A stretch of DNA of 64,000 nucleotides from an uncultured Chloroflexia bacterium (GCA_963728205.1 CAVSIV010000004.1:64001-128000); one strand, 5' to 3'; positions 14,155 through 28,956 are shown, counted from the stretch's first letter. Made by a program: numbers and translations. Notes: generated by a model not told the origin, from the sequence alone.

Positions 14155-15128
14155 GTGAGCAGCGTCCAGACCATCCGCGGGCAGATCGACTCCTCGGCGC
14201 TGGGAAAGACGCTCTCCCACGAGCACCTCACCAACGGCGTGAGTGGCATGGAGCGCATCCCCGGCCTGTTCGACCGCGACGAGATGGTCGACCGCTGCGT
14301 CGAGGCGCTGGAGCGCGTGCACCGCTCCGGCATCGACAGCGTGATCGACCTCACGCCGTTCGACCTCGGCCGCCAGGTGTGGCTCTTCGAGCGCGTCGCG
14401 GAGCGCTCGCCCGTGAACGTGGTCTGCGCGACGGGCGTCTACCGCTGGGTGCCCTCCATCTACTTCGGGTGGGACGAGGACGAGATCGCCGCGCACTGGT
14501 CGCGCGAGATCCAGGACGGCATCGAGGGGACGTCGGTGCGCGCCGGCATCATCAAGCTGGCCTGGGACTTCGAGTACCGGCTGAACGACGGCAACCCGCG
14601 CTTCACGCCGCGCGGCGATGCTCGAGAAGACCGCCCGCGCCGCCGCCCGCACGGCGAAGGCGACGGGCGTGCCGATCTCGTGCCACACACGCGCCGTCGA
14701 CGAGCTCGGCACACCGCTGCTCGACATCTTCGAGGACGAGGGGCTGGACCTGCGCGCGGTCACGATTGGTCACTCGAACGATACGCAGGACCTCACGTAC
14801 CTGAAGGCGCTTGCCGAGCGCGGGTGCCGTCGTTGGGCTCGACCGCTTCTTCTCGCGCGAGGACGACTACGTCGCGCAGCGCTCCGGCATCGCGCTCGCG
14901 CTGATCCAGGCGGGCTTCGCCGAGCAGGTCTGCCTCGGCCACGACGCCACGCCCGCCGGCCTCTGGGGCCGGTGGCGCGAGGAGCGCAACCCGGAGTGCT
15001 GGTGCCTCGTCCCCGACTACGAGGTCCCGTGGCTGCGCGCCAACGGCGCGACCGACGACGACGTCGACGCCGTGCTGCGCCGCTCGATCCGGTCGACGTT
15101 CGAAGCCGCGGCGGCGATGGCGGGCTGA
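14155..15128 (+). CDS. phosphotriesterase-family amidohydrolase, two +1 frameshifts (~14615, ~14830)
   Basis: VQTIRGQI...LGKTLSHEHL, AGIIKLA, PISCHT, IGHS and LGHD motifs over three successive frames. Confidence 0.85.
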
Positions 15129-15138
15129 CGCCAGCCAC

Positions 15139-15307
15139 GGCGAGCAGGGCGGCGTGAGCCCCCGGTTTCCGGCGCCCCATCCCATCGCGGGCGACCGACC
15201 GCCTCGCCCCGACGCCCGCGCGTGAGGGACCCTGTGGCCTCGTGGCCCCGCTTCGTGATCGGCCGCCGGAAACCGGCGGCTGACACCACCCGGCTCGCCC
15301 CATCCCA
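15139..15307. repeat. intergenic element with 36-nt inverted arms
   Basis: 15139-15174 vs reverse complement of 15264-15299 match 31/36; CGCCCCATCCCA direct repeat at 15173 and 15296. Confidence 0.65.
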
Positions 15308-15451
15308 CCCTTGCCCGGTTGCGCTAGCCTCGATTCGCCTCCGCCCCACCGCTAGGAGGCGCGACCGCCACCCCGGACCTGCTGGGCCGTCGTTGCCGGG
15401 CGCGCGGGCGGCGTGCGTATACTCCGGCTCGCATCGGACGGGGGGACGACG

Positions 15452-17200
<1,749 letters not shown>

Positions 17201-17299
17201 CGGGCCCGGCGCGCGGAACGCGCCAGCGTCCCGACGAGCCACGTAGGTACGGCGGCGCGCCCCGGCGGGCGCGCCGCTGTGTGACGGATGGGACGTGCG

Positions 17300-18448
17300 A
17301 TGCCGACCGACGCGAGCGACGAGATCCAGATCGACCGCGGCCTGAACGGCGTCTACTTCGACCGCAGCAACGTCTGCTTCATCGACGGTCGCGAGGGCCG
17401 GCTGCTCTACCGCGGCTACAACATCCACGACCTCGCCGAGCGGTCGACCTCCGAGGAGACCGCCTACCTCCTGCTCCACGGCGAGTTGCCCACGCGCGAG
17501 CAGCTCACGGCGTTCGACGCCGAGCTGAAGGCGGCCCGCGCCATCCCGGCGCCGGTGCTCGACATCATTCGGGCGGTGAAGGACGCGCACCCGATGGAGG
17601 TGCTGCGCACCGCCGTTTCCGCGCTCGGCGCGTTCGACCCGGAGGTCGCCGACAACTCCATGGAGGCGACGCGCCGCAAGGGCGTGCGCCTGTCCGCGCA
17701 GGTGCCGATGCTGATCGCTGCCCACCACCGCATTCGCTCCGGCGAGGAGCCGGTTGCCCCGCGCGACGACCTCGGCCAGGCCGCGAACTTCCTCTACTGC
17801 CTCAAGGGCGAGGCCCCCTCCGCGGACGCCGCGAGCCTGATGGACACCGACTTCATCCTCCACGCCGAGCACGGCTCGAACGCCTCCGCCTTCACCGCGC
17901 GCGTCGTCGCCGGCACCGCGGCCAACCTGCACGCGGCGGTCACCGCCGCCGTCGCCGCGCTGTCCGGGCCCGCGCACGGCGGCGCGGCCGAGAACGTGAT
18001 GCGCATGGCGCAGGAGATCGGCGAGCCGGAGCGCGCGCAGGCGTACGTCGAGAACCTGCGCAAGAACCGCCAGCCCGTGATGGGCTTCGGCCACCGCGTC
18101 TACCGCGCGGAGGACCCGCGCGCCCGCCACATGCGCGACGGCGTGAAGCGCCTCTCCGAGGAGATGGGCCAGCCGAAGTGGTACGCCATCCTGGAAGCGG
18201 TGGTGGAGGCGATGCGCCCGTACGCGCGGCTCGGCGTGAACGTGAACGTCGACTTCTACGCCGGCGTCGTCTACTACCTCCACGGCATCCCGGAGGATCT
18301 CTTCGTCCCGATTTTCGCCATCGGCCGCGTCCCGGGCTGGTCGGTGCAGGTGCTCGAGCAGTTCGAGCACAACATCCTGATCCGGCCGCTCACCCAGTAC
18401 ACCGGTCCCGACGAGCGTCCCTACGCGCCGATCGAGCGGCGGGGTTAA
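17300..18448 (+). CDS. gltA: citrate (or 2-methylcitrate) synthase
   Basis: LLYRGY, HPME, HAEHGSNAS, GPAHGGA, MGFGHRVY, DPRA and NVDFY motifs. Confidence 0.9.
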   Translation: MPTDASDEIQIDRGLNGVYFDRSNVCFIDGREGRLLYRGYNIHDLAERSTSEETAYLLLHGELPTREQLTAFDAELKAARAIPAPVLDIIRAVKDAHPMEVLRTAVSALGAFDPEVADNSMEATRRKGVRLSAQVPMLIAAHHRIRSGEEPVAPRDDLGQAANFLYCLKGEAPSADAASLMDTDFILHAEHGSNASAFTARVVAGTAANLHAAVTAAVAALSGPAHGGAAENVMRMAQEIGEPERAQAYVENLRKNRQPVMGFGHRVYRAEDPRARHMRDGVKRLSEEMGQPKWYAILEAVVEAMRPYARLGVNVNVDFYAGVVYYLHGIPEDLFVPIFAIGRVPGWSVQVLEQFEHNILIRPLTQYTGPDERPYAPIERRG

Positions 18449-18537
18449 ATGACGTCCCTGCACGTGCCGGCGGCCGAGCTGTCGCGCCACCCGTCGCCGC
18501 CGGCGCGCGGCCGCAGCGGCCCCACGAGCGTGTAGCG

Positions 18538-19164
18538 GTGCCGCTCCTGCCGGCCTTCCGCGGCGCCGCCGTCGCCCGCGGGCACCTTCCCGACGACACG
18601 CCCGTCACGGCCGCCGCCGCCTTCGCGCTCGTGCGCGACATGCCCTACGAGCGCGCGTCGTCGCGCGACCCTGCCGTCACCGTGGACGAGTGGCGCGGAA
18701 CCTGCTCCGGCAAGCACTACCTGCTGCGCGCGTTGTTCGAGGAGCTGGGCGTCCCGACGGTCCTGCTCGCATGCACGCACGCCTTCACGCTCGAGAACGC
18801 CCCGTGGGCGCCGCCCGACCTCCGCGCGATCCTCGAGGGCGGCCCCGTGCCCGACGTGCACAACTTCCTGCGCATCCAGCCCTTCCCCGGGACGGAGCGC
18901 GCCGATGAGTGGACCACCGTCGACGCCACCTGGCCGCTGGCGGCGGCGAGCCTGGGCCTGCCGGTGAACGAGCGCTTCGAGCTCGGTCGCGACCAGCGTG
19001 TGGCCTGTGACCCGATCGAGGTCTTTCACGTCCCGGACGACATCGACCCGCAGGAACTCAAGGAGCGACTGCTGGAGATCCATGTGGGGGACCAGGGCGA
19101 CCGGCGCGAGCGCTTCCTCGCCGGGATGATGCGCTGGCTGGCGGCGGAGCTAGCGGCGCGCTGA
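18538..19164 (+). CDS. transglutaminase-like Cys-His-Asp fold protein
   Basis: VRDMPY...GTCSGKH, DVHNFL and VDATWP pattern; start uncertain. Confidence 0.6.
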   Translation: MPLLPAFRGAAVARGHLPDDTPVTAAAAFALVRDMPYERASSRDPAVTVDEWRGTCSGKHYLLRALFEELGVPTVLLACTHAFTLENAPWAPPDLRAILEGGPVPDVHNFLRIQPFPGTERADEWTTVDATWPLAAASLGLPVNERFELGRDQRVACDPIEVFHVPDDIDPQELKERLLEIHVGDQGDRRERFLAGMMRWLAAELAAR

Positions 19165-19211: not shown

Positions 19212-19514
19212 GTGCAATCCCAGTCGTTTCGCCAGTCGCTCGTACTCTCCATGCTCTTCACCGGCGTGTGGGGCGTCGTGGGCTACATCTGGGGCGGCCA
19301 GGACCTCCTGGCGACGCTGCTCCAGCTGCCGCTCTTCTTCGCGATCATCCTGTTGACGATGCGCGGAACGAACCGCATCACGAACATGCTGATGGGGCGG
19401 TTCGGCCCGAAGCCGAAGCCGCCGCCCCCGCCGCTGGAGCCGACCACGGACCGCCCCGAGCACGTCCAGCGCCGGCGCCGGTCGCGGCGCCGCAGGAGCG
19501 GCCGCAACGCCTGA
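19212..19514 (+). CDS. small two-TM membrane protein with basic C-terminal tail
   Basis: two hydrophobic segments, Pro-rich linker, Arg-rich end; -10-like TAGCAT 6 nt before GTG. Confidence 0.7.
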   Translation: MQSQSFRQSLVLSMLFTGVWGVVGYIWGGQDLLATLLQLPLFFAIILLTMRGTNRITNMLMGRFGPKPKPPPPPLEPTTDRPEHVQRRRRSRRRRSGRNA

Positions 19515-19539: not shown

Positions 19540-19585
19540 AAAACGAAGCGGCCCGACGATCAGCCTGATCGTCGGGCCGCTTCGT
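19540..19585 (-). terminator. intrinsic terminator (possibly bidirectional)
   Basis: perfect 21-nt inverted arms 19543-19563 and 19565-19585, ending in TTTT on the minus strand. Confidence 0.85.
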
Positions 19586-19604
19586 ACCTTTGCCGTCTAG
19601 CGGA

Positions 19605-19643
19605 CTAGGTCCACTCGATACCGGCAGTCCACTTCGCGCGCAT
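19605..19643 (-). CDS. 12-aa Trp-repeat micropeptide MRAKWTAGIEWT
   Basis: ATG CGC GCG AAG TGG ACT GCC GGT ATC GAG TGG ACC TAG; SD GAAGGGA 6 nt upstream; own promoter and terminator. Confidence 0.7.
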   Translation of the reverse strand: MRAKWTAGIEWT

Positions 19644-19685
19644 CGCGAATCCCTTCGCTCAGCACCGGCCCTCCGTGGCCGTCAA

Positions 19686-19715
19686 AATCTATGTGGAGTT
19701 AAGAATTCATGTCAA
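19686..19715 (-). promoter_or_regulatory. sigma70-type promoter for the micropeptide
   Basis: TTGACA (19715-19710), 18-nt AT-rich spacer, TAGATT (19691-19686). Confidence 0.75.
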
Positions 19716-19776
19716 TCCGCTGGATGACGTAAGGCCCAGCAGAACGGCGACCCGAGCGTGAGAGGAACGCTGCGAT

Positions 19777-22299
19777 TCAAGAGGCAGCCCGAAGGCCACC
19801 CGAACGTTCGCGAACATATCCTTCGATCACGTCGGCCGGCTGTGGTCGCGAGAAGTAGAAGCCCTGTGCGGTCGCGCACCCGATATCCGACAGGATCTGG
19901 ACCTGCTCGGGGCGCTCGATGCCCTCCGCCACGACCTTGAGCTCCAGCGCGCGCGCCACGTTCACGACCGCGCGGACGATGTTCGCCTCGCGCTCGTCGT
20001 GATCCACGTCGGTGACGAAAGAGCGGTCGACCTTGAGCACGTCGGCCGGCAGGCGGCGTAGGTAGTTCAGCGACGAGTAGCCGGTCCCGAAGTCGTCGAT
20101 TGCGATCTCGACCCCGAGTCCCTTCAGCTCGAAGAAGACCTTCCGCGCGAGCGTGACATCGCGCATCAGCACGCTTTCGGTGATCTCGATGCGGAGCAGC
20201 TCCGGACGCAGATTCGCGTCGCGCAGCGTCTTGGCGACACGCCACGTCAGGTCCGGCTCCATGAACTCCTTCGCAGAGAGATTCACGGCCATCGTGAAGT
20301 GACCGAGGGCGGGGATCTTCTTCTGCCACTCGCGCGCCTGGCGACAGGCCTCAGCGAGGACCCACTGGCCGATGGGCACGATCTCGCCCGTCTCCTCGGC
20401 GAGCGGGATGAAGTCGTTCGGGGGGACCAGGCCACGCGTCGGGTGCTCCCAGCGCACGAGCGCCTCGAACCCCACCACCTGGAGCGTCTCGAGATCCAGC
20501 TCGGGCTGGTAGAACACCCGCAGCTGCCCCTCCTTGACCGCCTGCCGCAGGTCGGCCTCCAGCTCGAAGCGCTTCATCGACGAGGCGTCGATCGCATCGT
20601 CGAAGACCACGTGCCGCGCGCGGCCCTCTTCCTTCGCGCGGAACACGGCGACGTCCGCGCGACGCACGAGGTCCCGCGAGTCATTCTCGCCAGGCGTGCT
20701 CAGTGCGACGCCAATGCTCGCGGTCACCACGGCGCTGTGCACCCCAAACTCCAGCGGCTGCGAGAACGCCTGGAGCAGCTTGCGCGCCATCAGGTCGACG
20801 TCGAGGGGCGAGTGGAGGTCTTCCAGAAGGATCACGAACTCGTCGCCGCCGAGACGCGCGACGGTGTCATCGGGACGCAGCACCTCGGTGATTCGCCGGG
20901 CGGCCGTCACAAGCAGATCGTCGCCAGCTGCATGGCCAAGGCTGTCGTTCACCACCTTGAAGCGGTCGAGGTCGATGAAGAGTACCGCCACCTGCGCGCC
21001 GCGCCGCGCTGCGCCCGAGAGCGCATGCGCGAGGCGGTCGAGGAACAGCGCGCGGTTCGGGAGCTGGGTCAGCGGGTCGTGGAATGCCTGGTGCCGGAGC
21101 TGGTCCTCGAGCGCCTTTCGGTCGGTCACGTCGTGCGCGTTCACGACGATGCCATGGACGGCGTCGTCCTCGAGCAGGTTCTGCACGATTGCCGTGTAGT
21201 CGCGCATGGTGCCGTCGCGCAGCGTGAGGCGAAGGTCCATCGTGGCCTGCAAGTCCGGATTCGCGAGGACCTCGGCGAGGACGCTTGTCACCTGCGGCAG
21301 CTCCTCTGGCCGCGCGAGCGCGAGGAAGTCGCGCTCGGCCTCACCCTCGAATGTGCGGCGCTCGCCGTTGGGACCAGGACTCAGGTACTGGATCGAAGCG
21401 TCCGCATCGAGGACGGCGATGAAGCCGGGAGCGTTCTGGACGAGCGAGCGGAACCGCTGCTCGCTGCGACCGAGCGCACGGTTGGCCTCCTGGAGACGCT
21501 CGACACCAGCCCGCGCGCGGCTCGTGTACTGACGCGACGCCAGCGCCAGCATGGCGACGGGCATCGCGAAGATCGCCACGCCAACGAATCCAAGCTCGAC
21601 GAAAGAGATGGCGCTCGCATAGGCCGCGAGACCGAACGCCCCATAATGCGGCGCGAGCCAGCGGAACTTCTCGTCCCACACCGGGTATGGTCCGCGCCCC
21701 GTGCTAATCGACACCGCCAGCGCGACGAGCCAGGAGTTGACCAGGAAGGCCGTCTCCGCGGAGAGAAGCACGACGGGCAGATCGCGCAGGATCCGGCTCG
21801 CGGACGGACCACCGGTGATCGCGTAGAACATCGCGAGCCCGACCATCGCCGAGAGCGGCACCAGGCAGGCGTTGAACACGTACTTGTACCAGGTGCGCCG
21901 CTCGTGAGCCGACGCAACCAGGATCGAGAGCACGGAGACCAGACCGGCCACGCCCGGGCCGACCACGACCCCCATCGCGAAGACGGGGACGAACGCGAGC
22001 GTGAGCCGGCTGCCGCCGAAGAGGTCCGTCTCCCAGTTCTCTAGACCGGCGATCAGCACGGCCAGAAACAGGATGGACGTCCAGCTCGGGCGGGTGACCG
22101 TCGCGACCGCCAGCGGCCCGAGCAGCGTCGCCCAGATCAGCAGCGCCGTGGCGCCGAAGACGCCCACCAGGTAGACGCCGAGCACGGCCCCCGCGCGCGG
22201 GCGCACGCGTGACGCCGGAGCGTCGGACGTCGCGCGCCGGCCGGCGATTCCGGTCCCGGCGCGAAACGCATAGCGGAGTCGTCGACCAGTCGTTGCCAC
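19777..22299 (-). CDS. membrane-sensor (MASE9-like) PAS-GGDEF-EAL diguanylate cyclase/phosphodiesterase
   Basis: multi-TM N-terminus with KYVFN and FLVNSWLV motifs; PAS (SEQRFRSLVQN...HDVTDRK); HDPLTQLPNR, RPDD I-site, RLGGDEF; YQP, FEALVRW, DDFGTGYSSL, AEGIE; start may extend to 22368. Confidence 0.93.
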   Translation of the reverse strand: MATTGRRLRYAFRAGTGIAGRRATSDAPASRVRPRAGAVLGVYLVGVFGATALLIWATLLGPLAVATVTRPSWTSILFLAVLIAGLENWETDLFGGSRLTLAFVPVFAMGVVVGPGVAGLVSVLSILVASAHERRTWYKYVFNACLVPLSAMVGLAMFYAITGGPSASRILRDLPVVLLSAETAFLVNSWLVALAVSISTGRGPYPVWDEKFRWLAPHYGAFGLAAYASAISFVELGFVGVAIFAMPVAMLALASRQYTSRARAGVERLQEANRALGRSEQRFRSLVQNAPGFIAVLDADASIQYLSPGPNGERRTFEGEAERDFLALARPEELPQVTSVLAEVLANPDLQATMDLRLTLRDGTMRDYTAIVQNLLEDDAVHGIVVNAHDVTDRKALEDQLRHQAFHDPLTQLPNRALFLDRLAHALSGAARRGAQVAVLFIDLDRFKVVNDSLGHAAGDDLLVTAARRITEVLRPDDTVARLGGDEFVILLEDLHSPLDVDLMARKLLQAFSQPLEFGVHSAVVTASIGVALSTPGENDSRDLVRRADVAVFRAKEEGRARHVVFDDAIDASSMKRFELEADLRQAVKEGQLRVFYQPELDLETLQVVGFEALVRWEHPTRGLVPPNDFIPLAEETGEIVPIGQWVLAEACRQAREWQKKIPALGHFTMAVNLSAKEFMEPDLTWRVAKTLRDANLRPELLRIEITESVLMRDVTLARKVFFELKGLGVEIAIDDFGTGYSSLNYLRRLPADVLKVDRSFVTDVDHDEREANIVRAVVNVARALELKVVAEGIERPEQVQILSDIGCATAQGFYFSRPQPADVIEGYVRERSGGLRAAS

Positions 22300-22541
22300 G
22301 GCGTCGGCCTCTCGGCCCCACCCCTCTCGGTTCCTTCTCCCGATCACTATCGACTCGCCATACGTCATCCGTAGAAGCGGTTGCCCCGGGAAGGACGCGG
22401 CGGTCCCACCCGAACCGAGAACGGCCCGAATCAGCGGCTGTCATAAGTCAGTCTGCTGCCGTACACAGCGGCGTCGTGCGGTCCCACCGGGGGATGCGTA
22501 CGTGATGCGCGGACGGTGCCCGGAGGTGCCGGCTCGGACTG

Positions 22542-23525
22542 CTACGGCATCGCCAGCACGAGCTTGCCGAAGTTCTCGTTCGCCTCCATCGCGCGGTGCG
22601 CGTCGGCGACCTCGGCCAGTGGAAACACGCGGTCCACGATCGGGCGCACGGCCCCGGAAGCGAACAGCGGTACCACCCGCGCGACGAACTCCTGCGTGAG
22701 CTGCGCCTTCTGCTCCAGCGGCCGCGCACGCAGCAGCGTGCCGTGCACCTGCAGCCGCTTACCCATCAGCGCGCCGAGGTTCACCTCGAGCTTCGCGCCG
22801 CCCATCGTGCCGACGATGATCATTCGCCCCTGCTGACCGAGCGCCGCCAGGTTCTGCTCCCAGTACGGTGCGCCGATCACGTCGAGCACCACCTGCACGC
22901 CGGCGCCGGCGGTCTCGCGCGCGACGACCTCCGCGAAGTCCTGCTCGCGGTAGTTGATGCCGACATCGAGGCCCAGCGCCCTGGCGGCGTCGAGCTTCGA
23001 GGCCGAGCCGGCGGTGCCGAACGTCCGGCAGCTCGCCGCGTGCGCCAGCTGGATCGCGGCCGTGCCCACGCCCGACCCGGCGGCGTGCACCAGCACGGAC
23101 TCGCCCGTCGCGAGCCCGCACTGCCGGAAGAGCGCGTCGTACGCGGTAAGGAAGACCTCCGGAATCGCCGCCGCCTCGTCGAAGTCGATGTTCGCCGGCA
23201 CCGGCATCAGCATTCGCTCGTGCACCACGACCTTCGACGCGTAGCCGCCCCCGGCGAGCAGCGCCATCACGCGGTCCCCCGGCTCCCAGCCGGTCACGCG
23301 CTCGCCCACCGCCTCAACGACACCGGCCATCTCCAGCCCCGGGATGTCGTCGCGCGTGCCCTTCGGGCCGGGGTACCGCCCGCGCCGTTGCAGGAGGTCG
23401 GCGCGGTTGAGCGCGGTCGCCCGCACCGCCACCCGCACCTCCTCCGCGCCGAACGCGGGGTCGTCGACCTCCTGGATGGCGAAGACGTCGGGGTCTCCGG
23501 GCGTCGTGATCACGGCTGCGCGCAT
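22542..23525 (-). CDS. NAD(P)H-quinone oxidoreductase (PIG3/zeta-crystallin type)
   Basis: LNRADLLQRRGRYP, PGLEMAG, HAAGSGVGTAAIQLA and FGKLVL motifs; RBS GGAGGAGG. Confidence 0.9.
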   Translation of the reverse strand: MRAAVITTPGDPDVFAIQEVDDPAFGAEEVRVAVRATALNRADLLQRRGRYPGPKGTRDDIPGLEMAGVVEAVGERVTGWEPGDRVMALLAGGGYASKVVVHERMLMPVPANIDFDEAAAIPEVFLTAYDALFRQCGLATGESVLVHAAGSGVGTAAIQLAHAASCRTFGTAGSASKLDAARALGLDVGINYREQDFAEVVARETAGAGVQVVLDVIGAPYWEQNLAALGQQGRMIIVGTMGGAKLEVNLGALMGKRLQVHGTLLRARPLEQKAQLTQEFVARVVPLFASGAVRPIVDRVFPLAEVADAHRAMEANENFGKLVLAMP

Positions 23526-23630
23526 GGGGCCTCCTCCGGCCGGATGGTACCCCGCCTCGCCGCTGCGCCGAACGCCGGTGCGGTCGATGGGGCTCCTATA
23601 CTCGACGCGGTCGTCCCCTGGAGGTGCCCG

Positions 23631-25028
23631 ATGCCCGACGCCGCCCCCGGCCCCACCCGCGCGCTCGCCAACTTCGTCGCCTCCGCCGGCGTCCCCGCCG
23701 CCGTCCGCGACGTCACGCGGCGCTACCTGCTCGACTGGCTCGGCTCCGCCGTCGCCGGCGGCGAGTTGCGCCCGCCCGCCATCGCGCGCGCCGTCGTCGC
23801 CGACCTCGGCGGCCACCCGCAGGCGACCGTGCTCGCCACCGGCGAGCGCACCTCCGCGCCCCTCGCCGCCTTTGCCAACGCCGCCGCCGCTCACGTGCTC
23901 GAGATGGACGACCTCGACCGCGAGTCGATCTCGCACCCCGCCGCGCCCATCGTCGCGGCCGCGCTCGCGGTCGGCGAGCGTGAGGGCGCCGACGGCGCGG
24001 CGCTGCTCGACGCCATCGCCGTCGGCTACGAGGTGAGCATCCGCGTCGGCGAGGCGCTCGGCCCGCGCCACTACGAGCACTGGCACACCACCGGCACCGC
24101 CGGCACCCTCGGCGCGGCCGCCGCCGCCGCGCGGCTCGCCGGCCTCGACGCGGCGACCACCCTCCAGGCGCTCGGCAGCGCCGGCACGATGACCGCCGGC
24201 CTGTGGGAGTTCCTCGCCGACGGTGCGATGTCGAAGCAGCTCCACCCGGCGAAGGCCGCGCACGACGGCATCCTCGCGGCGCTCCTCGCCGCCCGCGGGT
24301 TCTCCGCCGCCACGCACATCCTCGAGGGCCCGAAGGGCGTGCTCGCCGCGATGAGCACCGACGCCCGCCCCGAGCGGCTCACGCACGGCCTGGCGGTCGA
24401 CATGAGCGACTGGCGCATCGCAAAGGTGTCGTTCAAGGTCCACGCCTCGTGCCGGCACACCCATTCCGCGGTCGACGCGGCGCTGGCCCTGCGCCGGCAG
24501 CACGCCCTGGCGCCGGACGCGATCGCCCGCGTCGACGTGCGCGTCTACTCGCAGGCGCTCGGGCTGCTCGACGGCATGGAGCCGACCACGCCGTACGCCG
24601 CGAAATTCTCGCTGCCGTTCTGCGTCGCCGCCGCGCTCGTCCATGGCGACCTCGCTCCCCAGCGCTTCACAGACGACTCCATCACCGAAGCCGGGACGCT
24701 CGCCCTCACCGAGCGGGTCCACTTCACGACCGACCCCGCGCTCGACGCGCTCTACCCGACCGCGTGGCCGAGCATCGTCACCGTCACCCTCGCGGACGGC
24801 ACGCAGCTCGAGGCGCGCGTCGACCACCCCGCGGGCGATCCCGAGAGCGGCATCACCGAGGCAGACATCGCCGCGAAGTTCCGCACGCTGACCGACGCGC
24901 TGCTCGGCGACGCGGCGCAGCGCCTCGCGCACGACGTGCTCGCCGCGCAGCCGCCGCCGGCCCCCGGGGCGATCGTCGCCGCCGTGACGGCGGCCACCAC
25001 CGGCCATCGGCTCGTCTCCGCAGGCTGA
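23631..25028 (+). CDS. MmgE/PrpD family protein
   Basis: HVLEMDD, SHP, WHTTGT, KQLHPA, FKVHASCRHTH, AKFSLP and GDPE motifs. Confidence 0.9.
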   Translation: MPDAAPGPTRALANFVASAGVPAAVRDVTRRYLLDWLGSAVAGGELRPPAIARAVVADLGGHPQATVLATGERTSAPLAAFANAAAAHVLEMDDLDRESISHPAAPIVAAALAVGEREGADGAALLDAIAVGYEVSIRVGEALGPRHYEHWHTTGTAGTLGAAAAAARLAGLDAATTLQALGSAGTMTAGLWEFLADGAMSKQLHPAKAAHDGILAALLAARGFSAATHILEGPKGVLAAMSTDARPERLTHGLAVDMSDWRIAKVSFKVHASCRHTHSAVDAALALRRQHALAPDAIARVDVRVYSQALGLLDGMEPTTPYAAKFSLPFCVAAALVHGDLAPQRFTDDSITEAGTLALTERVHFTTDPALDALYPTAWPSIVTVTLADGTQLEARVDHPAGDPESGITEADIAAKFRTLTDALLGDAAQRLAHDVLAAQPPPAPGAIVAAVTAATTGHRLVSAG

Positions 25029-25124
25029 TCCGCGCGTCCGACCCCCGTTCCCCGTGCGTTCGTGCCGTGACGCGGCAAGGGTGCGTGCTACGATCCGCGT
25101 CGATTCACGGAGCGAAGAGGGGGA

Positions 25125-27629
25125 GTGGTGCCCGGACTGAGAGACTCGCACCGACTGACCGTCGACCAGGTCACCGCACCGCTCGATCCCGCGTCCCTCT
25201 CCTTCCAGCGCACCGATGAGCTGCCGCCGATTGAGGCCGTCTTCGGCCAGGAGCGGGCCGTGCGCGCAATCGAGTTCGCGCTCGGCATGGAGGCGCCGGG
25301 CTACAACCTCTTCGCCTCCGGACCGGATGGCATCGGCAAGTCGACCATCGTCGAGTCGTTCCTGCGCCGCCGCGCCGCGCAGATGCCGGCGCCGCAGGAC
25401 TGGATCTACGTCCGCAACTTCCACGACACCGACCGGCCAATCGGCATCGCGATGCCGCCGGGACGCGGACGCGCGTTCGCGGAGGCGGTCGCCAACGCCG
25501 TGCAGGCCGCCGGCCGCGAGATCCGCGCCGCCTTCGACTCCGACGACTACGCCCGCCAGCAGCAGGCACTCGGCTCCGAGCTCGAGGAGGAGCGCTCGCG
25601 GCAGCTGCAGCACCTCCAGGACCAGGCGCGCGAGCTCGGCTTCTTCCTTCAGCTCACGCCGCAGGGCATCAACTCGGCGCCGCTGATCGACGGCCAGCCA
25701 GCCACGCAGGAGCAGTTCGATGCGCTCCCCGAGGAAGAGCGCAACCGCGTGCAGGAGCAGGCCAAGCAGCTCGAGTCGCTCGTGCAGGACACGATGCTCA
25801 AGCTCCGCGCCACCGAGCGCGGCGCCCGCGAGCGCTCGACGCAGCAGGACGAGGACGTCGCGGCGGCGGCGATCCACGACATCTTCGAGGCGCTGCTCGC
25901 CGAGTACGGCGACAATCCGGAGATCCGCGCCTTCGTCGAGGCCGTGCGCGACGACATCCGCAAGGAGCGCGACCGCTTCCGCCAGGAAGGGCAGCCGACG
26001 GGGCTCCCGGCGATGCTCGGCGGCCAGCAGGGCCCGCCGGTGCGGCGCTACGAGGTCAACGTCGCGATCAGCAACGACCCGTCGGACGGCGCGCCGGTGA
26101 TCCGCGAGCGCCACCCGACGTTCAACAACCTCCTCGGCCATGTCGAGTACCAGGGCCAGTTCGGCGCGGTGACGACCGACCACACGATGATCAAGGCCGG
26201 CTCGCTGGCGCGGGCGAATGGCGGCTTCATCGTGCTGCGACTGCGCGACCTCCTGCAGCAGCCCGTGGCGCTGGACGCGCTGAAGCGCGCACTGGACGCC
26301 GGGGAGATCGCGATCGAGAACGTCGCCGAGGCCTATGGCCTCGCGCCGACGGTCGGGCTGCGGCCGGCGCCGATCCCGCTGCACGTGAAGGTCGTGATCG
26401 TCGGAGACGCGCAGCTGTACTCGCTCCTCTACCGCTACGACCCCGACTTCCGCGAGCTGTTCCGCGTCAAGGCCGACTTCGAGGTCGACGTGCCGCGCAC
26501 GCCCGAGAACATCCGCGGGCTCGCCGGCTTCATCGCGAGTCACTGCGAGCGTCACCACCTGCGATGCTTCAGCGCCGCAGCCGTCGCGCGGCTCGTCGAG
26601 CACTCGTCCCGCACGGTCGAGGACCGCGAGCGGCTGTCGGCGAACCTCGGCGGGTTCCTCGACACGATTCGCCAGGCCGACTACTGGGCGTCCGTGGACG
26701 GCCAGGAGACGGTCGAGGTGCGTCACGTCGAGCGGGCGCTCGAAGAGCGCATCTACCGGTCGGCGCTGGTGCGCGACCGCATCCAGGAGGCGATCGAGAA
26801 GGACGAGATCCACGTCGAGGTCGAGGGCGAGCGCGTCGGCCAAATCAACGCGCTGGCGGTGTACGACCTGGGCGACTTCGAGTTCGGCCGGCCCTCGCGG
26901 ATCACGGGCGTGACGTCGGCCGGGCACGGCACCATCGTCATGGTCGACCGCGAGAGCGACCTGTCCGGTCGCATCCATACCAAGGGCTTCTTCATCCTGC
27001 GCGGGTTCCTCACGGAGCGCTTCGGCCAGGTCCGCGGCGGCCAGCTGCACGCCAGCCTCACCTTCGAGCAGCTCTACGGCGACATCGACGGCGACTCCGC
27101 TTCCTCGACCGAGCTCTACGTCCTGCTGTCCGCGCTGGCCGACGTCCCGATCGACCAGGGCGTCGCCGTCACGGGCTCGGTCGACCAGCTCGGCCGGGTG
27201 CAGCCGATCGGCGGCGCGATCGCGAAGATCGAGGGCTTCTATGAGGTCTGCCGCCAGCACGGCCTGAACGGCAAGCAGGGCGTGATGATCCCGGCCACGA
27301 ACGTGCGGCACGTGATCCTGCGACCGGAGATCGCGCAGGCCGTCGCGTCCGGGCAGTTCCACGTGTGGGCGGTGTCGACCATCGAAGAGGGCATCGAGAT
27401 CCTGACCGGCATGCCCGCCGGTGTGCGGGGCGACGACGGTGCGTACCCCGAGGGGACGGTCTACCGGCGCGTCGAGGACCGCCTCGCCGCGTTCGCGCTG
27501 GAGATCCGCGAGCAGGCGGCGCCGCCGGGCGCGGCGCCGGGCATGCGCGTCGTGATGCCGCAACAGCAGCAGCCGAACCCGCCGGGCATCCCGCCGCAGC
27601 CCCCGCCCGAGCCGCCGGTCCACGTGTGA
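25125..27629 (+). CDS. LonC-type (AAA_32 plus Lon_C) protease
   Basis: GQERAVRA, GYNLF, GPDGIGKS, ANGGFIVL, GQINALAV, DGDSAS (catalytic Ser) and GGAIAKIEGF (catalytic Lys). Confidence 0.9.
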   Translation: MVPGLRDSHRLTVDQVTAPLDPASLSFQRTDELPPIEAVFGQERAVRAIEFALGMEAPGYNLFASGPDGIGKSTIVESFLRRRAAQMPAPQDWIYVRNFHDTDRPIGIAMPPGRGRAFAEAVANAVQAAGREIRAAFDSDDYARQQQALGSELEEERSRQLQHLQDQARELGFFLQLTPQGINSAPLIDGQPATQEQFDALPEEERNRVQEQAKQLESLVQDTMLKLRATERGARERSTQQDEDVAAAAIHDIFEALLAEYGDNPEIRAFVEAVRDDIRKERDRFRQEGQPTGLPAMLGGQQGPPVRRYEVNVAISNDPSDGAPVIRERHPTFNNLLGHVEYQGQFGAVTTDHTMIKAGSLARANGGFIVLRLRDLLQQPVALDALKRALDAGEIAIENVAEAYGLAPTVGLRPAPIPLHVKVVIVGDAQLYSLLYRYDPDFRELFRVKADFEVDVPRTPENIRGLAGFIASHCERHHLRCFSAAAVARLVEHSSRTVEDRERLSANLGGFLDTIRQADYWASVDGQETVEVRHVERALEERIYRSALVRDRIQEAIEKDEIHVEVEGERVGQINALAVYDLGDFEFGRPSRITGVTSAGHGTIVMVDRESDLSGRIHTKGFFILRGFLTERFGQVRGGQLHASLTFEQLYGDIDGDSASSTELYVLLSALADVPIDQGVAVTGSVDQLGRVQPIGGAIAKIEGFYEVCRQHGLNGKQGVMIPATNVRHVILRPEIAQAVASGQFHVWAVSTIEEGIEILTGMPAGVRGDDGAYPEGTVYRRVEDRLAAFALEIREQAAPPGAAPGMRVVMPQQQQPNPPGIPPQPPPEPPVHV

Positions 27630-27641
27630 GACGGGCCCCCG

Positions 27642-28202
27642 GTGCCCGCTGAGGCCGCGGACGAGCGCCCATTGCTCACGCTCGACTTCGACGGGGTGAT
27701 CTCCAGCCCGCCGTTCGGGCGCAACCTCGGCATCCATCGCGCGTTCCTCGACGCCGCCGCGCCGCCGCTCCCGGCGAGCCGGTGGCCGCGCTGGCTGGGC
27801 GACCCGCTCGACCGCCTGCGGTTCGACTTCCGCCGACCGCTCCCCGAGGCGCCGCAGGCGCTGCGCGCGCTGGCGACGGTGCGCCGCCTCGTCGTGCTCA
27901 CCGGCCGGCGCTCGTCGCCCGCGGCGTGGATCGCGCGCCACCGGCTCCCGGACGTCTTCGAACGCATCGTCATCAACGACGGCTCGCTGCGCAGCCCGCA
28001 CTTCAAGCTGCACGCGATCGAGCTGCTGGGGGCCGATGAGCACATCGACGACGACCCGCGCACCGCGCAGCTCCTCGCGGAGCGCACCGACATTGCCGTC
28101 TACCTCCGCGACTGGCCGCGCAACCGCGACCTGCCCTACGACCCGCGTGTGACGCGGGTCGCCGACCTCGCGGACCTCGCGCGGCGGCTCACGCAGGACT
28201 GA
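27642..28202 (+). CDS. HAD-superfamily protein
   Basis: DFDGVI motif I, LTGR motif II, K, HIDDD motif IV. Confidence 0.75.
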   Translation: MPAEAADERPLLTLDFDGVISSPPFGRNLGIHRAFLDAAAPPLPASRWPRWLGDPLDRLRFDFRRPLPEAPQALRALATVRRLVVLTGRRSSPAAWIARHRLPDVFERIVINDGSLRSPHFKLHAIELLGADEHIDDDPRTAQLLAERTDIAVYLRDWPRNRDLPYDPRVTRVADLADLARRLTQD

Positions 28203-28293
28203 TCGGCAGCCTGCCGCTTGGCCGCTCGCCGCACGCGGTCGCGATGCGCACCACCTGTTCCCACCGCCGCCCGCCGTGTGCGATCCTCCGCGC

Positions 28294-28956
28294 ATGACCG
28301 ACACGCCCCGACCGTCGGACCCCGACGCCAACGCCGCGCCGGCCCTCCCGTCGCACCTCTTCCGCCGCCAGGACGAGTCGCCGGACGGCGCGTTCTACCG
28401 GGAGCCGCGCTTCGTCACGCACATCGACGACGCCACCATGGACGCGCTCACGCAGCTCTACCGCGAGGTGCTCACGCCCGGCGCCGACGTCCTCGACCTG
28501 ATGTCGTCCTGGGTCTCGCACCTGCCGGAGGACGTCCGCTACGGGCGCGTGGCCGGCCTCGGGCTGAACGAGCGGGAGCTCGCGGGCAACCCGCGGCTCG
28601 ACGACTACGCCGTCCACGACCTCAACCGCAACCCGGAGCTGCCGTACCCGGAGGCGTCCTTCGACTTCGTCGTGAACGCGGTCTCCGTGCAGTACCTCAC
28701 GCGGCCGATCGAGGTCTTCGCGTCGGTCGCGCGCGTGCTGCGGCCGGGCGGGACGTACCTCGTCGCGTGCTCGCACCGAATGTTCCCGACGAAGGCGGTC
28801 GCGGTGTGGCAGGCGCTGCAGCCCGACGACCGGATCCGGCTCGTCGGGTCGTACTTCTCCCTCGCCGGCGCCTTCGACGAGCCCGGCTTCGTCGACCGCT
28901 CGCCGGCGGGCGCCGATCCGCTGTGGGTGATCTACGCGCGGCGCGTCGCCGGCTGA
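28294..28956 (+). CDS. class I SAM-dependent methyltransferase
   Basis: FYREPRFVTHID, VLDLMSSWVSHLP, SVQYL...RVLRPGG and RMFPTKAV motifs. Confidence 0.85.
   Translation: MTDTPRPSDPDANAAPALPSHLFRRQDESPDGAFYREPRFVTHIDDATMDALTQLYREVLTPGADVLDLMSSWVSHLPEDVRYGRVAGLGLNERELAGNPRLDDYAVHDLNRNPELPYPEASFDFVVNAVSVQYLTRPIEVFASVARVLRPGGTYLVACSHRMFPTKAVAVWQALQPDDRIRLVGSYFSLAGAFDEPGFVDRSPAGADPLWVIYARRVAG

Follow-up and report, generated by a model that had tools for sequence, protein, structure and literature searches.

A micro-ORF of 12 codons, with its own promoter and a terminator-like hairpin, lies behind the gene for a membrane c-di-GMP enzyme, and related tiny genes for peptides with Trp ends lie behind the same enzyme in five related bacterial genera. 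It is therefore probably a real peptide gene and a putative partner of that sensor, an inference from sequence comparison alone. The locus is part of a 64,000-nucleotide stretch (hereafter the window) from an uncultured Chloroflexia bacterium (GCA_963728205.1 CAVSIV010000004.1:64001-128000). The initial annotation described a complete transcription unit downstream of the GGDEF-EAL gene, and this observation was confirmed. Its interpretation, that the peptide or a processed xxWT fragment is a ligand or intramembrane modulator of the adjacent enzyme, is only partly supported.

All elements of the unit are on the minus strand. The sigma-70-type promoter consists of TTGACA (19715-19710), an 18-nt spacer and TAGATT (19691-19686), with a transcription start inferred near 19679. 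It is the only sigma-70-like site found between 18500 and 23000 on either strand, with 0.2 expected from shuffled sequences. A GAAGGGA Shine-Dalgarno (SD) motif lies 6 nt before the ATG of the sORF (19643-19605, ATG to TAG), which encodes MRAKWTAGIEWT and includes the family core G-I-E-W. The AKWT and IEWT motifs are both present in this peptide. The unit ends with a hairpin (19585-19540) whose inverted-repeat arms (19543-19563 and 19565-19585) are 21 nt each, 100% complementary and separated by 1 nt. The U-tract reported in the initial annotation amounts to only 4 T (19543-19540), the consensus terminator scan of the same region made no call, and congeners also have short or no T runs. The predicted transcript of about 150 nt folds at -83.2 kcal/mol (z = -5.05).

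The neighbouring gene (19777-22368, minus strand) codes for a protein with a MASE9-like membrane domain (PF20972, residues 117-280, 31.9 bits against a curated cut-off of 24.3), a GGDEF domain (160 bits) and an EAL domain (245 bits). The RPDD-x5-GGDEF motif, with its RxxD I-site, and the EAL motif can be read in its sequence, but the PAS domain remains below threshold (PAS_4, 21.2 bits against a cut-off of 23.1). The true start of this gene is uncertain because conservation with the orthologues begins near residue 51. The unit lies in a 262-nt convergent spacer. The gene beyond it (19212-19514, plus strand) codes for a 100-residue membrane protein and points towards the unit, so that nothing lies downstream on the unit's strand, which led us to reject a Trp-attenuator function. 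This convergent gene bounds the unit but is not part of the module, as it was found in 82 of 99 genomes of the family, mostly without the unit beside it.

Next, we compared loci across this family of Chloroflexota. Genomes are numbered below, G000 being that of the window, and the genera are called g1 (that of the window), g10, g12, g14 and g21. The receptor belongs to one orthogroup with the domain order MASE9-like, PAS, GGDEF and EAL. We examined ten loci of this orthogroup, in G000, G002 (contig C7) and G003 (contig C77) of g1, G016 of g14, G012, G078 and G079 of g10, G014 and G041 of g12, and G023 of g21, in which the receptor is cut by the start of the contig. The sORF is intact in nine of them, within a promoter-sORF-terminator unit just downstream of the receptor gene. 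In the tenth, G079, the promoter, a '..CCTGGTAG' remnant and the terminator are kept, but the sORF is deleted and the receptor gene is split. Absence of a conserved Trp-motif sORF near homologous sensors had been named beforehand as a refuting outcome, and the opposite was found. A TTGACA box with a 17- or 18-nt spacer and a TAnnnT -10 box recurs before the homologous units in G003, G002 (both copies), the metagenomic locus L042, G012, G078, G079 and G023. All of these genomes are uncultured MAGs of a single family, however, and the five genera therefore represent few independent events.

By eye, no such unit was found behind any of 34 other GGDEF-EAL genes, 27 MASE9-HD-GYP genes or two in-genus paralogues. 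We also scored these controls with loose criteria, namely 6-45 codons, an SD motif, a basic start and a Trp at the last or second-last residue. The 34 GGDEF-EAL loci without the N-terminal domain gave 3 hits, all of them Arg/Ser/Pro-rich frames, and the 27 MASE9-HD-GYP loci from elsewhere in the class, 25 of which had at least 382 nt of flank, gave 1 hit, MRTRRW. The reverse complement of the flanks gave 1 hit in 46, and the paralogues in G003 (contig C83) and G002 (contig C238) gave 0 of 2. The HD..GYP motif in those more distant relatives was identified by pattern matching rather than by a domain search; MASE9-HD-GYP is the combination described for MASE9 (bioRxiv 10.1101/2021.11.05.467447). 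Conversely, the pattern for MRKIR..GIAW occurs in 3 of the 99 family genomes, once each, and each time beside the receptor.

The peptides share an M-R-(K) start and a (G)-I-x-W(-D/T/V) end, with a conserved core that can be written M-R..(G)-I-x-W-(D/T). In contrast, the duplicated xxWT motif emphasized in the initial annotation is not conserved: it is peculiar to the window's genome, and G002 and G003 have a single Trp. In g10 and g21 the peptide has the short form MRKIR..GIAW(D). The G078 sORF (ATG CGC AAG ATC CGT GGG ATC GCC TGG) and that of G023 (ATG CGC AAG ATT CGA CTA TCG GGC ATC GCC TGG GAC) show 3 synonymous and 0 non-synonymous differences, with in-frame indels, and G012 differs from G078 by one synonymous change. 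Within g1 the peptides are poorly conserved (MRAKWTAGIEWT, MRWAVGGTRWD, MRSSSPGWD, MRTERGAAWD and MSVKRGTSWT). Nevertheless, these five sORFs, of 12, 11, 9, 10 and 10 codons, are all in frame, and GC3 of their variable middle is 0.91 (29/32), against 0.66 for the rest of the RNA (binomial p = 0.0014, for sequences that are not independent). In g12 and g14 we found forms of 30-32 residues that look like signal peptides followed by a short C-terminal end, MRKKLWLVVSLAAAASALVPGIASA|GSITW and MRRKMKIGLGIALGAAVAALPAVAAA|GNISWV. Each has a basic n-region, a hydrophobic core of 14-15 residues and an A-x-A motif, from which the cleavage site was inferred with the -3/-1 rule. The initial annotation stated that no signal peptide is visible, which is true for the window only.

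The pair stays together while its flanking genes change from genus to genus. It is flanked by a quinone oxidoreductase gene and the 100-residue protein gene in g1, by OppA/B/C-like genes and a DrrA-type ABC gene or an SRPBCC gene in g10, by genes for an OmpR-type regulator and an ABC-2 permease in g12, and by a gene for a beta-helix protein on one side in g14, the other side being unknown. In g10, g12 and g14 the gene for the 100-residue protein lies on other contigs than the receptor. The unit is conserved in all four genomes of g1, in which the flanking 100-residue protein is only 59-66% identical. However, the sORF can outlive the receptor, at least for a while. In one congener (G001, locus L040) the receptor gene has been replaced by an IS3-type transposase gene whose stop codon lies 13 nt before the first leader hairpin, yet the unit is intact with a GTG start. 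In G014 the receptor is truncated after GGDEF and the sORF is intact.

In the window's genus the invariant part is the leader, and thus RNA structure is conserved beside the codons. The leader harbours two hairpins with A-N-GGA-N hexaloops. H1 (19681-19666) is CGGCC-ACGGAG-GGCCG, and H2 (19658-19645) is GCGA-AGGGAU-UCGC, with the SD-like purines in its loop, 6 nt before the ATG. Both are invariant in 6 of 6 genus sequences, the invariant block of H1 being GCC-ACGGA-N-GGC. In G016, H1 is GCGCC-AAGGAA-GGCGU at the same place and H2 is AGCGA-AGGGAG-UCGCU, and in G041/G014 the H2 stem covaries (GGUGA-AAGGAU-UCACC). The sites are 22 nt apart in the window, 23-24 nt in congeners and 26 nt in G016. 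A third hairpin, H3 (19615-19599), AGUGGAC-CUA-GUCCGCU, contains the last Trp codon in its 5' arm and the stop codon in or at its loop. All genus copies form a hairpin there with different stems, but only 71% of cells pair on the MAFFT columns because of a one-base register shift. By our reading of the sequences, the stop codon also sits in a hairpin in G023, G078 and G012. As the Trp and stop codons lie in a conserved hairpin, part of their conservation may be structural. The helix equivalent to the terminator-like hairpin covaries in the genus, with 3 pairs changing on both sides and 92.7% of cells pairing.

The leader has the layout of high-affinity CsrA targets. Its loops fit the ANGGAX hexaloop-on-a-stem consensus, and ACGGAU is the hcnA loop bound by RsmE (PMC4005645). 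CsrA bridges two sites 10-63 nt apart (PMC7652899), and the Campylobacter jejuni flaA leader has two GGA hexaloops 21 nt apart (PMC4894983). The genome encodes flgL-fliW-csrA, with a CsrA match (PF02599, 66.8 bits) at 1480893-1481042 of its contig C6, and the 81-residue product matches solved CsrA chains. The flagellin leaders of this genome carry similar hairpin loops (AGGGAU, AGGAU) 23-29 nt before a GGCGAAGGAGGCC SD, the spacing being 23 nt in two of three. Nevertheless, the layout alone is not beyond chance. With a strict definition, dual ANGGAN hairpins occur 3 times in the genome, against 0, 4 and 0 in Markov controls. A loose definition gave 188 pairs genome-wide, without a whole-genome control, and 35 pairs on contig C2 alone against 21-24 in Markov controls, mostly in coding DNA, such that neither count discriminates. 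The g10 and g21 leaders lack the hairpins, the H1 loop of g12 reads AGAGAU, csrA is present whether or not the hairpins are, and a search for CsrA sites in the receptor's own leader revealed nothing clear.

We favour, with moderate confidence, the view that the unit is a genuine monocistronic micropeptide gene, belonging to a small gene family inherited together with one orthogroup of MASE9-like, PAS, GGDEF, EAL enzymes. The sequence comparisons establish that the sORF, with its own promoter and terminator-like hairpin, follows this receptor in five genera, that its codons are conserved and that the pair stays together while its flanks change, which supports a real peptide gene functionally tied to this receptor, whereas transcription, translation, export, binding to the receptor and binding of CsrA are inferred. 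In this view, the conserved C-terminal (G)-I-x-W(-D/T) end of the peptide would act on the membrane sensor domain of the enzyme and shift it between c-di-GMP synthesis and breakdown. In g12 and g14 the peptide appears to be made with a Sec-type signal peptide and would be released outside as GSITW or GNISWV. In the window's genus and two others, only the basic N-terminus and the Trp end remain (9-12 residues), and the peptide would act from the cytoplasmic face or would need another exporter, as a hydrophilic peptide of this size without an export signal has no known route to a membrane or extracellular site. A complex prediction for the G016 N-terminal domain (6-row alignment) with the 30-residue G016 peptide (2-row alignment) gave scores of 0.14 and 0.25, for a mark of 0.32. 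More tentatively, translation of the window's sORF would be gated at the two leader hairpins by CsrA.

Other explanations appear less likely. In the window's genus, the functional product might be the RNA itself, a small stable transcript whose two 5' hexaloop hairpins bind one CsrA dimer and which acts as a decoy resembling a flagellin leader, the tiny ORF being a relic or only helping RNA stability. The invariant leader and variable peptide, the ANGGAX loops, a spacing equal to that of the genome's own flagellin leaders, the presence of csrA-fliW, the near-consensus promoter, the 21-bp hairpin and the titration of CsrA by the C. jejuni flaA leader (PMC4894983) are in line with this idea. However, the reading frame is kept through four different lengths with a GC3 of 0.91, the g10 and g21 homologues conserve the peptide through synonymous changes and lack the hairpins, and the dual layout is not rarer than chance genome-wide. 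Moreover, only 2-3 GGA sites are present, whereas known sponges carry 5-22; a range of 13-22 is given in PMC6546359. We consider this reading unlikely. It is also possible, but doubtful, that the peptide is functional with a target other than the neighbouring enzyme, as a secreted signal read by another receptor, for example after Opp-type uptake, or as a membrane-active peptide, and that the two genes are adjacent only because they are co-regulated. Survival of the unit after loss or truncation of the receptor in G001 and G014, the position of the pair directly behind OppA/B/C-like genes in g10 and the secreted appearance of the long forms support this possibility. Against it, among the loci examined the sORF was found only in association with this one orthogroup across four different sets of flanking genes, apart from the copy that outlived its receptor in G001, and both receptor and sORF are damaged in G079.

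Even less likely is that the unit is a cis-acting 3' element of the receptor mRNA, in which translation of the micro-ORF and its hairpins would set the stability or 3' end of read-through GGDEF-EAL transcripts, the peptide itself being irrelevant. In the window no terminator separates the EAL stop (19777) from the unit, and the stop codon sits in a hairpin in every g1 copy. Yet G003, G002 and L042 have a separate terminator-like hairpin between the EAL gene and the unit's promoter, every unit has its own TTGACA promoter, and the amino-acid sequence is conserved between g10 and g21. Finally, short ORFs are common in 72% G+C DNA and the hairpin could also terminate the convergent gene, but a chance combination of an AT-rich patch, a short open frame and a bidirectional terminator in a convergent spacer is very improbable, being already contradicted by conservation of the unit in 4 of 4 congeners and beside the same receptor in four further genera.

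The arrangement is reminiscent of several systems. In Phr-type/RRNPP signalling of Firmicutes, a tiny peptide gene lies next to that of its receptor, as it does here next to that of its presumed receptor. As in those systems, the g12 and g14 precursors would be a signal peptide followed by a 5-6-residue C-terminal peptide, with an inferred cleavage site, the peptides diverge between species, and Opp-like genes are adjacent in g10. However, no TPR domain was found in the Pfam analysis of the neighbouring protein, which is a membrane enzyme rather than a cytoplasmic TPR regulator or phosphatase, the window's peptide has neither export signal nor pro-region (12 residues without a hydrophobic core), the output is c-di-GMP turnover and the phylum is Chloroflexota. 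For Agr-type systems, neither an AgrB-like protease nor a histidine-kinase receptor was found among the flanks collected: the window's flanking ORFs gave ADH_zinc, a weak transglutaminase-like match and no named family, and those of relatives gave Opp-like, ABC, OmpR-type and beta-helix proteins. CsrA-repressed flagellin leaders, Bacillus subtilis hag and C. jejuni flaA (PMC4894983, PMC7652899), similarly harbour two GGA motifs in adjacent hexaloop hairpins about 21-24 nt apart, the second covering the SD, in genomes with a FliW-type CsrA, but here the ORF has 12 codons and is not flagellin, the unit is a free-standing transcript of about 140 nt, CsrA binding is only inferred and the hairpins are absent from the g10 and g21 homologues. 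Small proteins such as MgrB, which acts on PhoQ, modulate the membrane-embedded sensing part of signalling enzymes, as proposed here, but they are single-pass membrane proteins of about 30-50 residues acting on histidine kinases, whereas the window's peptide is hydrophilic with a Trp end and the hydrophobic cores of the long forms have only signal-peptide length. Like the sponge RNAs CsrB and RsmZ, the unit would be a small, terminator-ended transcript presenting ANGGAX loops, but it has two loop GGA motifs rather than many, the others being in paired or coding sequence, and carries an ORF under coding constraint.

No ligand is known for MASE9, and the study that described this domain could only suggest that binding occurs within the membrane (bioRxiv 10.1101/2021.11.05.467447). 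A genetically linked candidate ligand of 5-12 residues makes the question testable with synthetic peptides and a c-di-GMP reporter. If confirmed, it would extend neighbouring-gene peptide signalling from kinases and TPR regulators to c-di-GMP enzymes, and from Firmicutes to Chloroflexota. Our literature searches revealed no described peptide-MASE9 or micropeptide-GGDEF-EAL pair, which does not prove that none is in print. In a more speculative scenario, which we consider unlikely but not excluded, the Trp-terminal micropeptide is the cognate ligand of the MASE9 intramembrane sensor and switches a bifunctional GGDEF-EAL enzyme, being Sec-exported as a 5-6-mer in some genera and leaderless in others, and its translation in the window's genus is additionally gated by the flagellar CsrA-FliW checkpoint. 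It would then be the first ligand assigned to MASE9 and the first peptide-gated c-di-GMP enzyme, and flagellin homeostasis would be wired directly to c-di-GMP.

These 9-12-codon genes are far below annotation limits, and the case shows that anchoring on the receptor can recover them. The best minus-strand Rfam matches between 18500 and 20500 are noise (E above 6), and no match at gathering score was found in three related loci (L034, L035 and L038). Only DNA runs, three from one study, and no RNA run were listed among the sequencing data. A BLAST-type DNA search of 41 relatives was too insensitive, as it found only G001 and missed G002 and G003, which carry the unit. Exact-pattern scans for the H1-H2 block gave 6 loci in genome contigs, 4 of them true and all from the same genus, and 11 loci in metagenome contigs, 3 of them true (L040, L042 and L050), the rest being coding or unrelated sequence. 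A Luteimonas match (L038) that looked homologous is a dispersed repeat with 13 matches in that genome and was dropped as chance. With a covariance model run over the 99 family genomes, the hits outside the genus were driven by the terminator helix, and only those in G016 and G023 proved real.

Downstream of the stop of the MASE9/GGDEF/EAL gene (19777) on the minus strand of the window, which is G000:C4:64001-128000 of a genome (hereafter G000) of 72.5% G+C, we found a promoter consisting of TTGACA (19715-19710), an 18-nt spacer and TAGATT (19691-19686), followed by a hairpin CGGCC-ACGGAG-GGCCG (H1, 19681-19666) and a second hairpin GCGA-AGGGAU-UCGC (H2, 19658-19645). An ATG at 19643 then opens a frame of twelve codons, MRAKWTAGIEWT, ending in TAG (19607-19605), with the stop in a third hairpin (19615-19599). 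The unit ends in a perfect 21+21-nt inverted repeat (19585-19543) followed by four T. The promoter is the only sigma-70-like site in 4.5 kb (0.2 expected), and the predicted transcript folds with z = -5.05. The terminator scan did not call the hairpin because the T run is short. The next gene (19212-19514, plus strand), coding for a 100-aa membrane protein, converges on the unit. Nothing can therefore be regulated downstream on the same strand, which removes any attenuator reading. The domains of the neighbouring enzyme are as the initial annotation described them, with intact RPDD-x5-GGDEF and EAL motifs, although PAS is only a sub-threshold match. The unit as first described from the sequence is thus confirmed.

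In order to find related units, we first used the gene for the 100-aa protein, present in 82 of 99 family genomes, as an anchor. All four genomes of the window's genus (g1) carry the unit opposite this gene, and exact-pattern scans added a second copy in one of them, G002, and two metagenome contigs. These relatives are recorded as Chloroflexota / Dehalococcoidia MAGs. The five distinct sORFs code for MRAKWTAGIEWT in the window (12 codons), (GTG)MRWAVGGTRWD in G001 (11 codons), MRSSSPGWD in G003 (9 codons), MRTERGAAWD in copy B of G002 (10 codons) and MSVKRGTSWT in copy A of G002 (10 codons). All five are in frame, and the GC3 of their variable middle is 29/32, against 0.66 for the rest of the RNA. 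Only the start (M-R/S) and the end (W-D/T-TAG) are kept, and hence the duplicated xxWT motif stressed in the initial annotation is not a family feature. The two G002 copies each sit at a contig end, one behind the EAL gene and one before the gene for the 100-aa protein (L035:1-240 at the end of G002:C7 and L036:4424-4644 at the end of G002:C98), so that a tandem duplication that broke the assembly is likely. The related metagenome contig L042 has only the second type.

The leader is quite different, as GCC-ACGGA-N-GGC, then 9-11 nt, then GCGAA-R-GGAUUCGC is invariant in 6 of 6 sequences, and the terminator helix covaries. In G003, G002 and L042, the EAL gene has its own terminator-like hairpin before the unit's promoter, indicating that the unit is an independent transcription unit there. 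One or two copies of TCCGGAAA(T/C) lie 3-20 nt upstream of TTGACA in G003, G002 and L042 (loci L034, L035, L036 and L042) and are absent from the window; this may be a transcription-factor site. In the G001-type contig L040 the receptor is gone. IS3-type transposase ORFs (L040:893-1842, minus strand) occupy the place of the GGDEF-EAL gene, the stop codon of the second ORF lies 13 nt before H1, and the unit's promoter is lost. The H1-H2 pattern is also matched by chance by a dispersed repeat of about 50 nt in Luteimonas-type genomes (L038:4118-4170 and many places in the genomes G115, G116 and G121), which forms two hairpins, CCGGCC-ACGGAU-GGCCGG and GCGAA-GGGA-UUCGC, and has 13 matches in one genome.

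Next, we searched the family with the whole receptor and read the DNA behind each full-length homologue, which revealed the same kind of unit in four more genera. In G078 and G012 (genus g10), the promoter is TTGACA-N17/18-TACATT / TAGATT and the peptide is MRKIRGIAW. In G023 (g21), TTGACA-N17-TAAATA precedes an sORF coding for MRKIRLSGIAWD, ending TGG GAC TAG TCCC exactly as in g1. The peptide is MRKKLWLVVSLAAAASALVPGIASAGSITW in G016 (g14) and (GTG)MRRKMKIGLGIALGAAVAALPAVAAAGNISWV in G041 and G014 (g12). Each unit ends in a terminator-like hairpin. Between G078 and G023 the nine shared codons differ at three synonymous sites and at no non-synonymous site, and both indels are whole codons, while G012 differs from G078 by one synonymous change. 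This is selection on the peptide, not on an RNA. The window's peptide keeps the family core, namely M-R-x-K at the start and G-I-E-W near the end. By our reading of the sequences (loci L107-L113 and L117), the last Trp codon and the stop codon lie in most units in a small hairpin of the form CCUGG...CCAGG/CUAGG, with the stop in the loop. The window, G023, G078 and G012 show this clearly, whereas G041 has only a 3-bp stem and no clear hairpin was found in G016; folds were computed only for the g1 copies.

Of the 10 loci of the receptor orthogroup examined, 9 have an intact sORF. Two decayed versions were seen. In G014 (L121, G014:C10) the receptor is truncated just after GGDEF, ending after RFGGDEF..DG, and is joined directly to H2 and the intact sORF. 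In G079 (L116, G079:C5) the receptor is split in two near residue 501 and the sORF is deleted, the unit being reduced to a promoter, '..CCTGGTAG' and a terminator. As controls, we scored other loci with a deliberately loose detector. Thirty-four GGDEF-EAL loci whose match does not reach the N-domain gave 3 hits, all Arg/Ser/Pro-rich frames typical of high-G+C noise, and the reverse complement of the flanks gave 1 hit in 46. The two in-genus paralogues gave 0 of 2. Twenty-seven loci in the class with distant N-domain homologues that carry an HD..GYP motif pattern gave 1 hit, MRTRRW, one further locus from an unpublished genome having been left out. From the sORF side, the MRKIR..GIAW pattern occurs in 3 of 99 family genomes, once each and always at the receptor.

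The flanks of the pair differ between genera. In g1, a quinone oxidoreductase gene lies upstream and the gene for the 100-aa protein downstream. In g10, OppA/OppB/OppC-like genes lie upstream and a DrrA-type ABC gene or an SRPBCC gene downstream; the pair there lies directly behind genes for a family-5 solute-binding protein and two Opp-type permeases on the same strand (L185:7675-13001 and L186:7962-9868), with no ATPase gene seen between them. The neighbours are genes for an OmpR-type regulator upstream and an ABC-2 permease downstream in g12, and a beta-helix protein gene upstream and an unknown gene downstream in g14. The sORF therefore travels with the receptor, not with its surroundings.

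What the comparison shows is that a conserved peptide-coding micro-gene is genetically coupled to one MASE9-like, PAS, GGDEF, EAL orthogroup, although the set of pairs is small and comes from one family of uncultured genomes. That the peptide acts on the enzyme is our inference, as are its export and any binding. No ligand is known for MASE9, whose describers suggested that binding occurs within the membrane. The long forms have a basic n-region, a hydrophobic core of 14-15 residues and A-x-A before GSITW or GNISWV, which we read, on the basis of the -3/-1 rule alone, as a putative Sec signal peptide releasing a 5-6-mer outside the cell. The short forms keep only the basic start and the Trp end, and they would have to act from the cytoplasmic face or leave by another route. 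Losses give mixed evidence, since G079 lost both partners while G001 and G014 lost the receptor and kept the sORF. The proposal of the initial annotation that the peptide is a ligand or modulator of the adjacent enzyme is thus supported only in part: the peptide gene and its tie to the sensor are well supported by comparison, the ligand mechanism, on which complex prediction gave no verdict, remains a reasonable inference, and the motif then emphasized is not the conserved one. Peptide signalling between neighbouring genes is already known, and what differs here is that it would be joined to a c-di-GMP enzyme with a MASE9-type sensor.

An RNA layer may be superimposed on this module. The two invariant leader hairpins of g1 present ACGGA-N and A-R-GGA-U as hexaloops directly on stems, 22-24 nt apart, with the second loop being the SD. 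This is the ANGGAX high-affinity form defined for RsmE/CsrA, and ACGGAU is the hcnA loop itself (PMC4005645). The spacing lies in the 10-63-nt range bridged by one CsrA dimer (PMC7652899), and it equals the layout of the C. jejuni flaA leader (PMC4894983). G016 has both hairpins with other stem sequences, and G041 and G014 have H2 with a covarying stem. However, the g10 and g21 leaders lack the hairpins, and the g12 H1 loop reads AGAGAU. Strict hairpin pairs are not rarer than chance in the genome, with 3 found against 0, 4 and 0 in Markov controls, and csrA is present in the genomes either way. We therefore consider gating by CsrA a tentative possibility, more doubtful than not, and keep as a rival the reading that the RNA is purely a CsrA decoy. 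The only other strict pairs of ANGGAN hexaloop hairpins in the genome are at G000:C6:609040 (plus strand), in the leader of a gene for a protein with a signal-peptide-like start behind an AT-rich promoter-like patch, and at G000:C6:1700452 (minus strand), in a structured intergenic region with a long inverted repeat.

In favour of the CsrA reading, G000 encodes flgL-fliW-csrA, and its flagellin leaders show similar hairpin loops. It has four flagellin genes (G000:C6:1386700-1398300), three of which have leaders with a hairpin-loop GGA site, a GGCGAAGGAGGCC SD and a CCGATGAT motif that resembles a sigma-28 -10 box. The hairpin loops of the flagellin leaders read AGGGAU, AGGAU and AGGAC and lie 23-29 nt before the SD.

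Very long mechanical ORFs around the unit in this 72% G+C DNA (15017-18490, minus strand; 17281-19164, plus strand; 22542-28331, minus strand) are mostly spurious. By GC3 and Pfam, the real genes here include one whose translation looked to us like a citrate synthase, without a Pfam match (17288-18448, plus strand), one for a transglutaminase-like protein, on a weak match (about 18553-19164, plus strand), and one for a zinc-type quinone oxidoreductase (22545-23561, minus strand).
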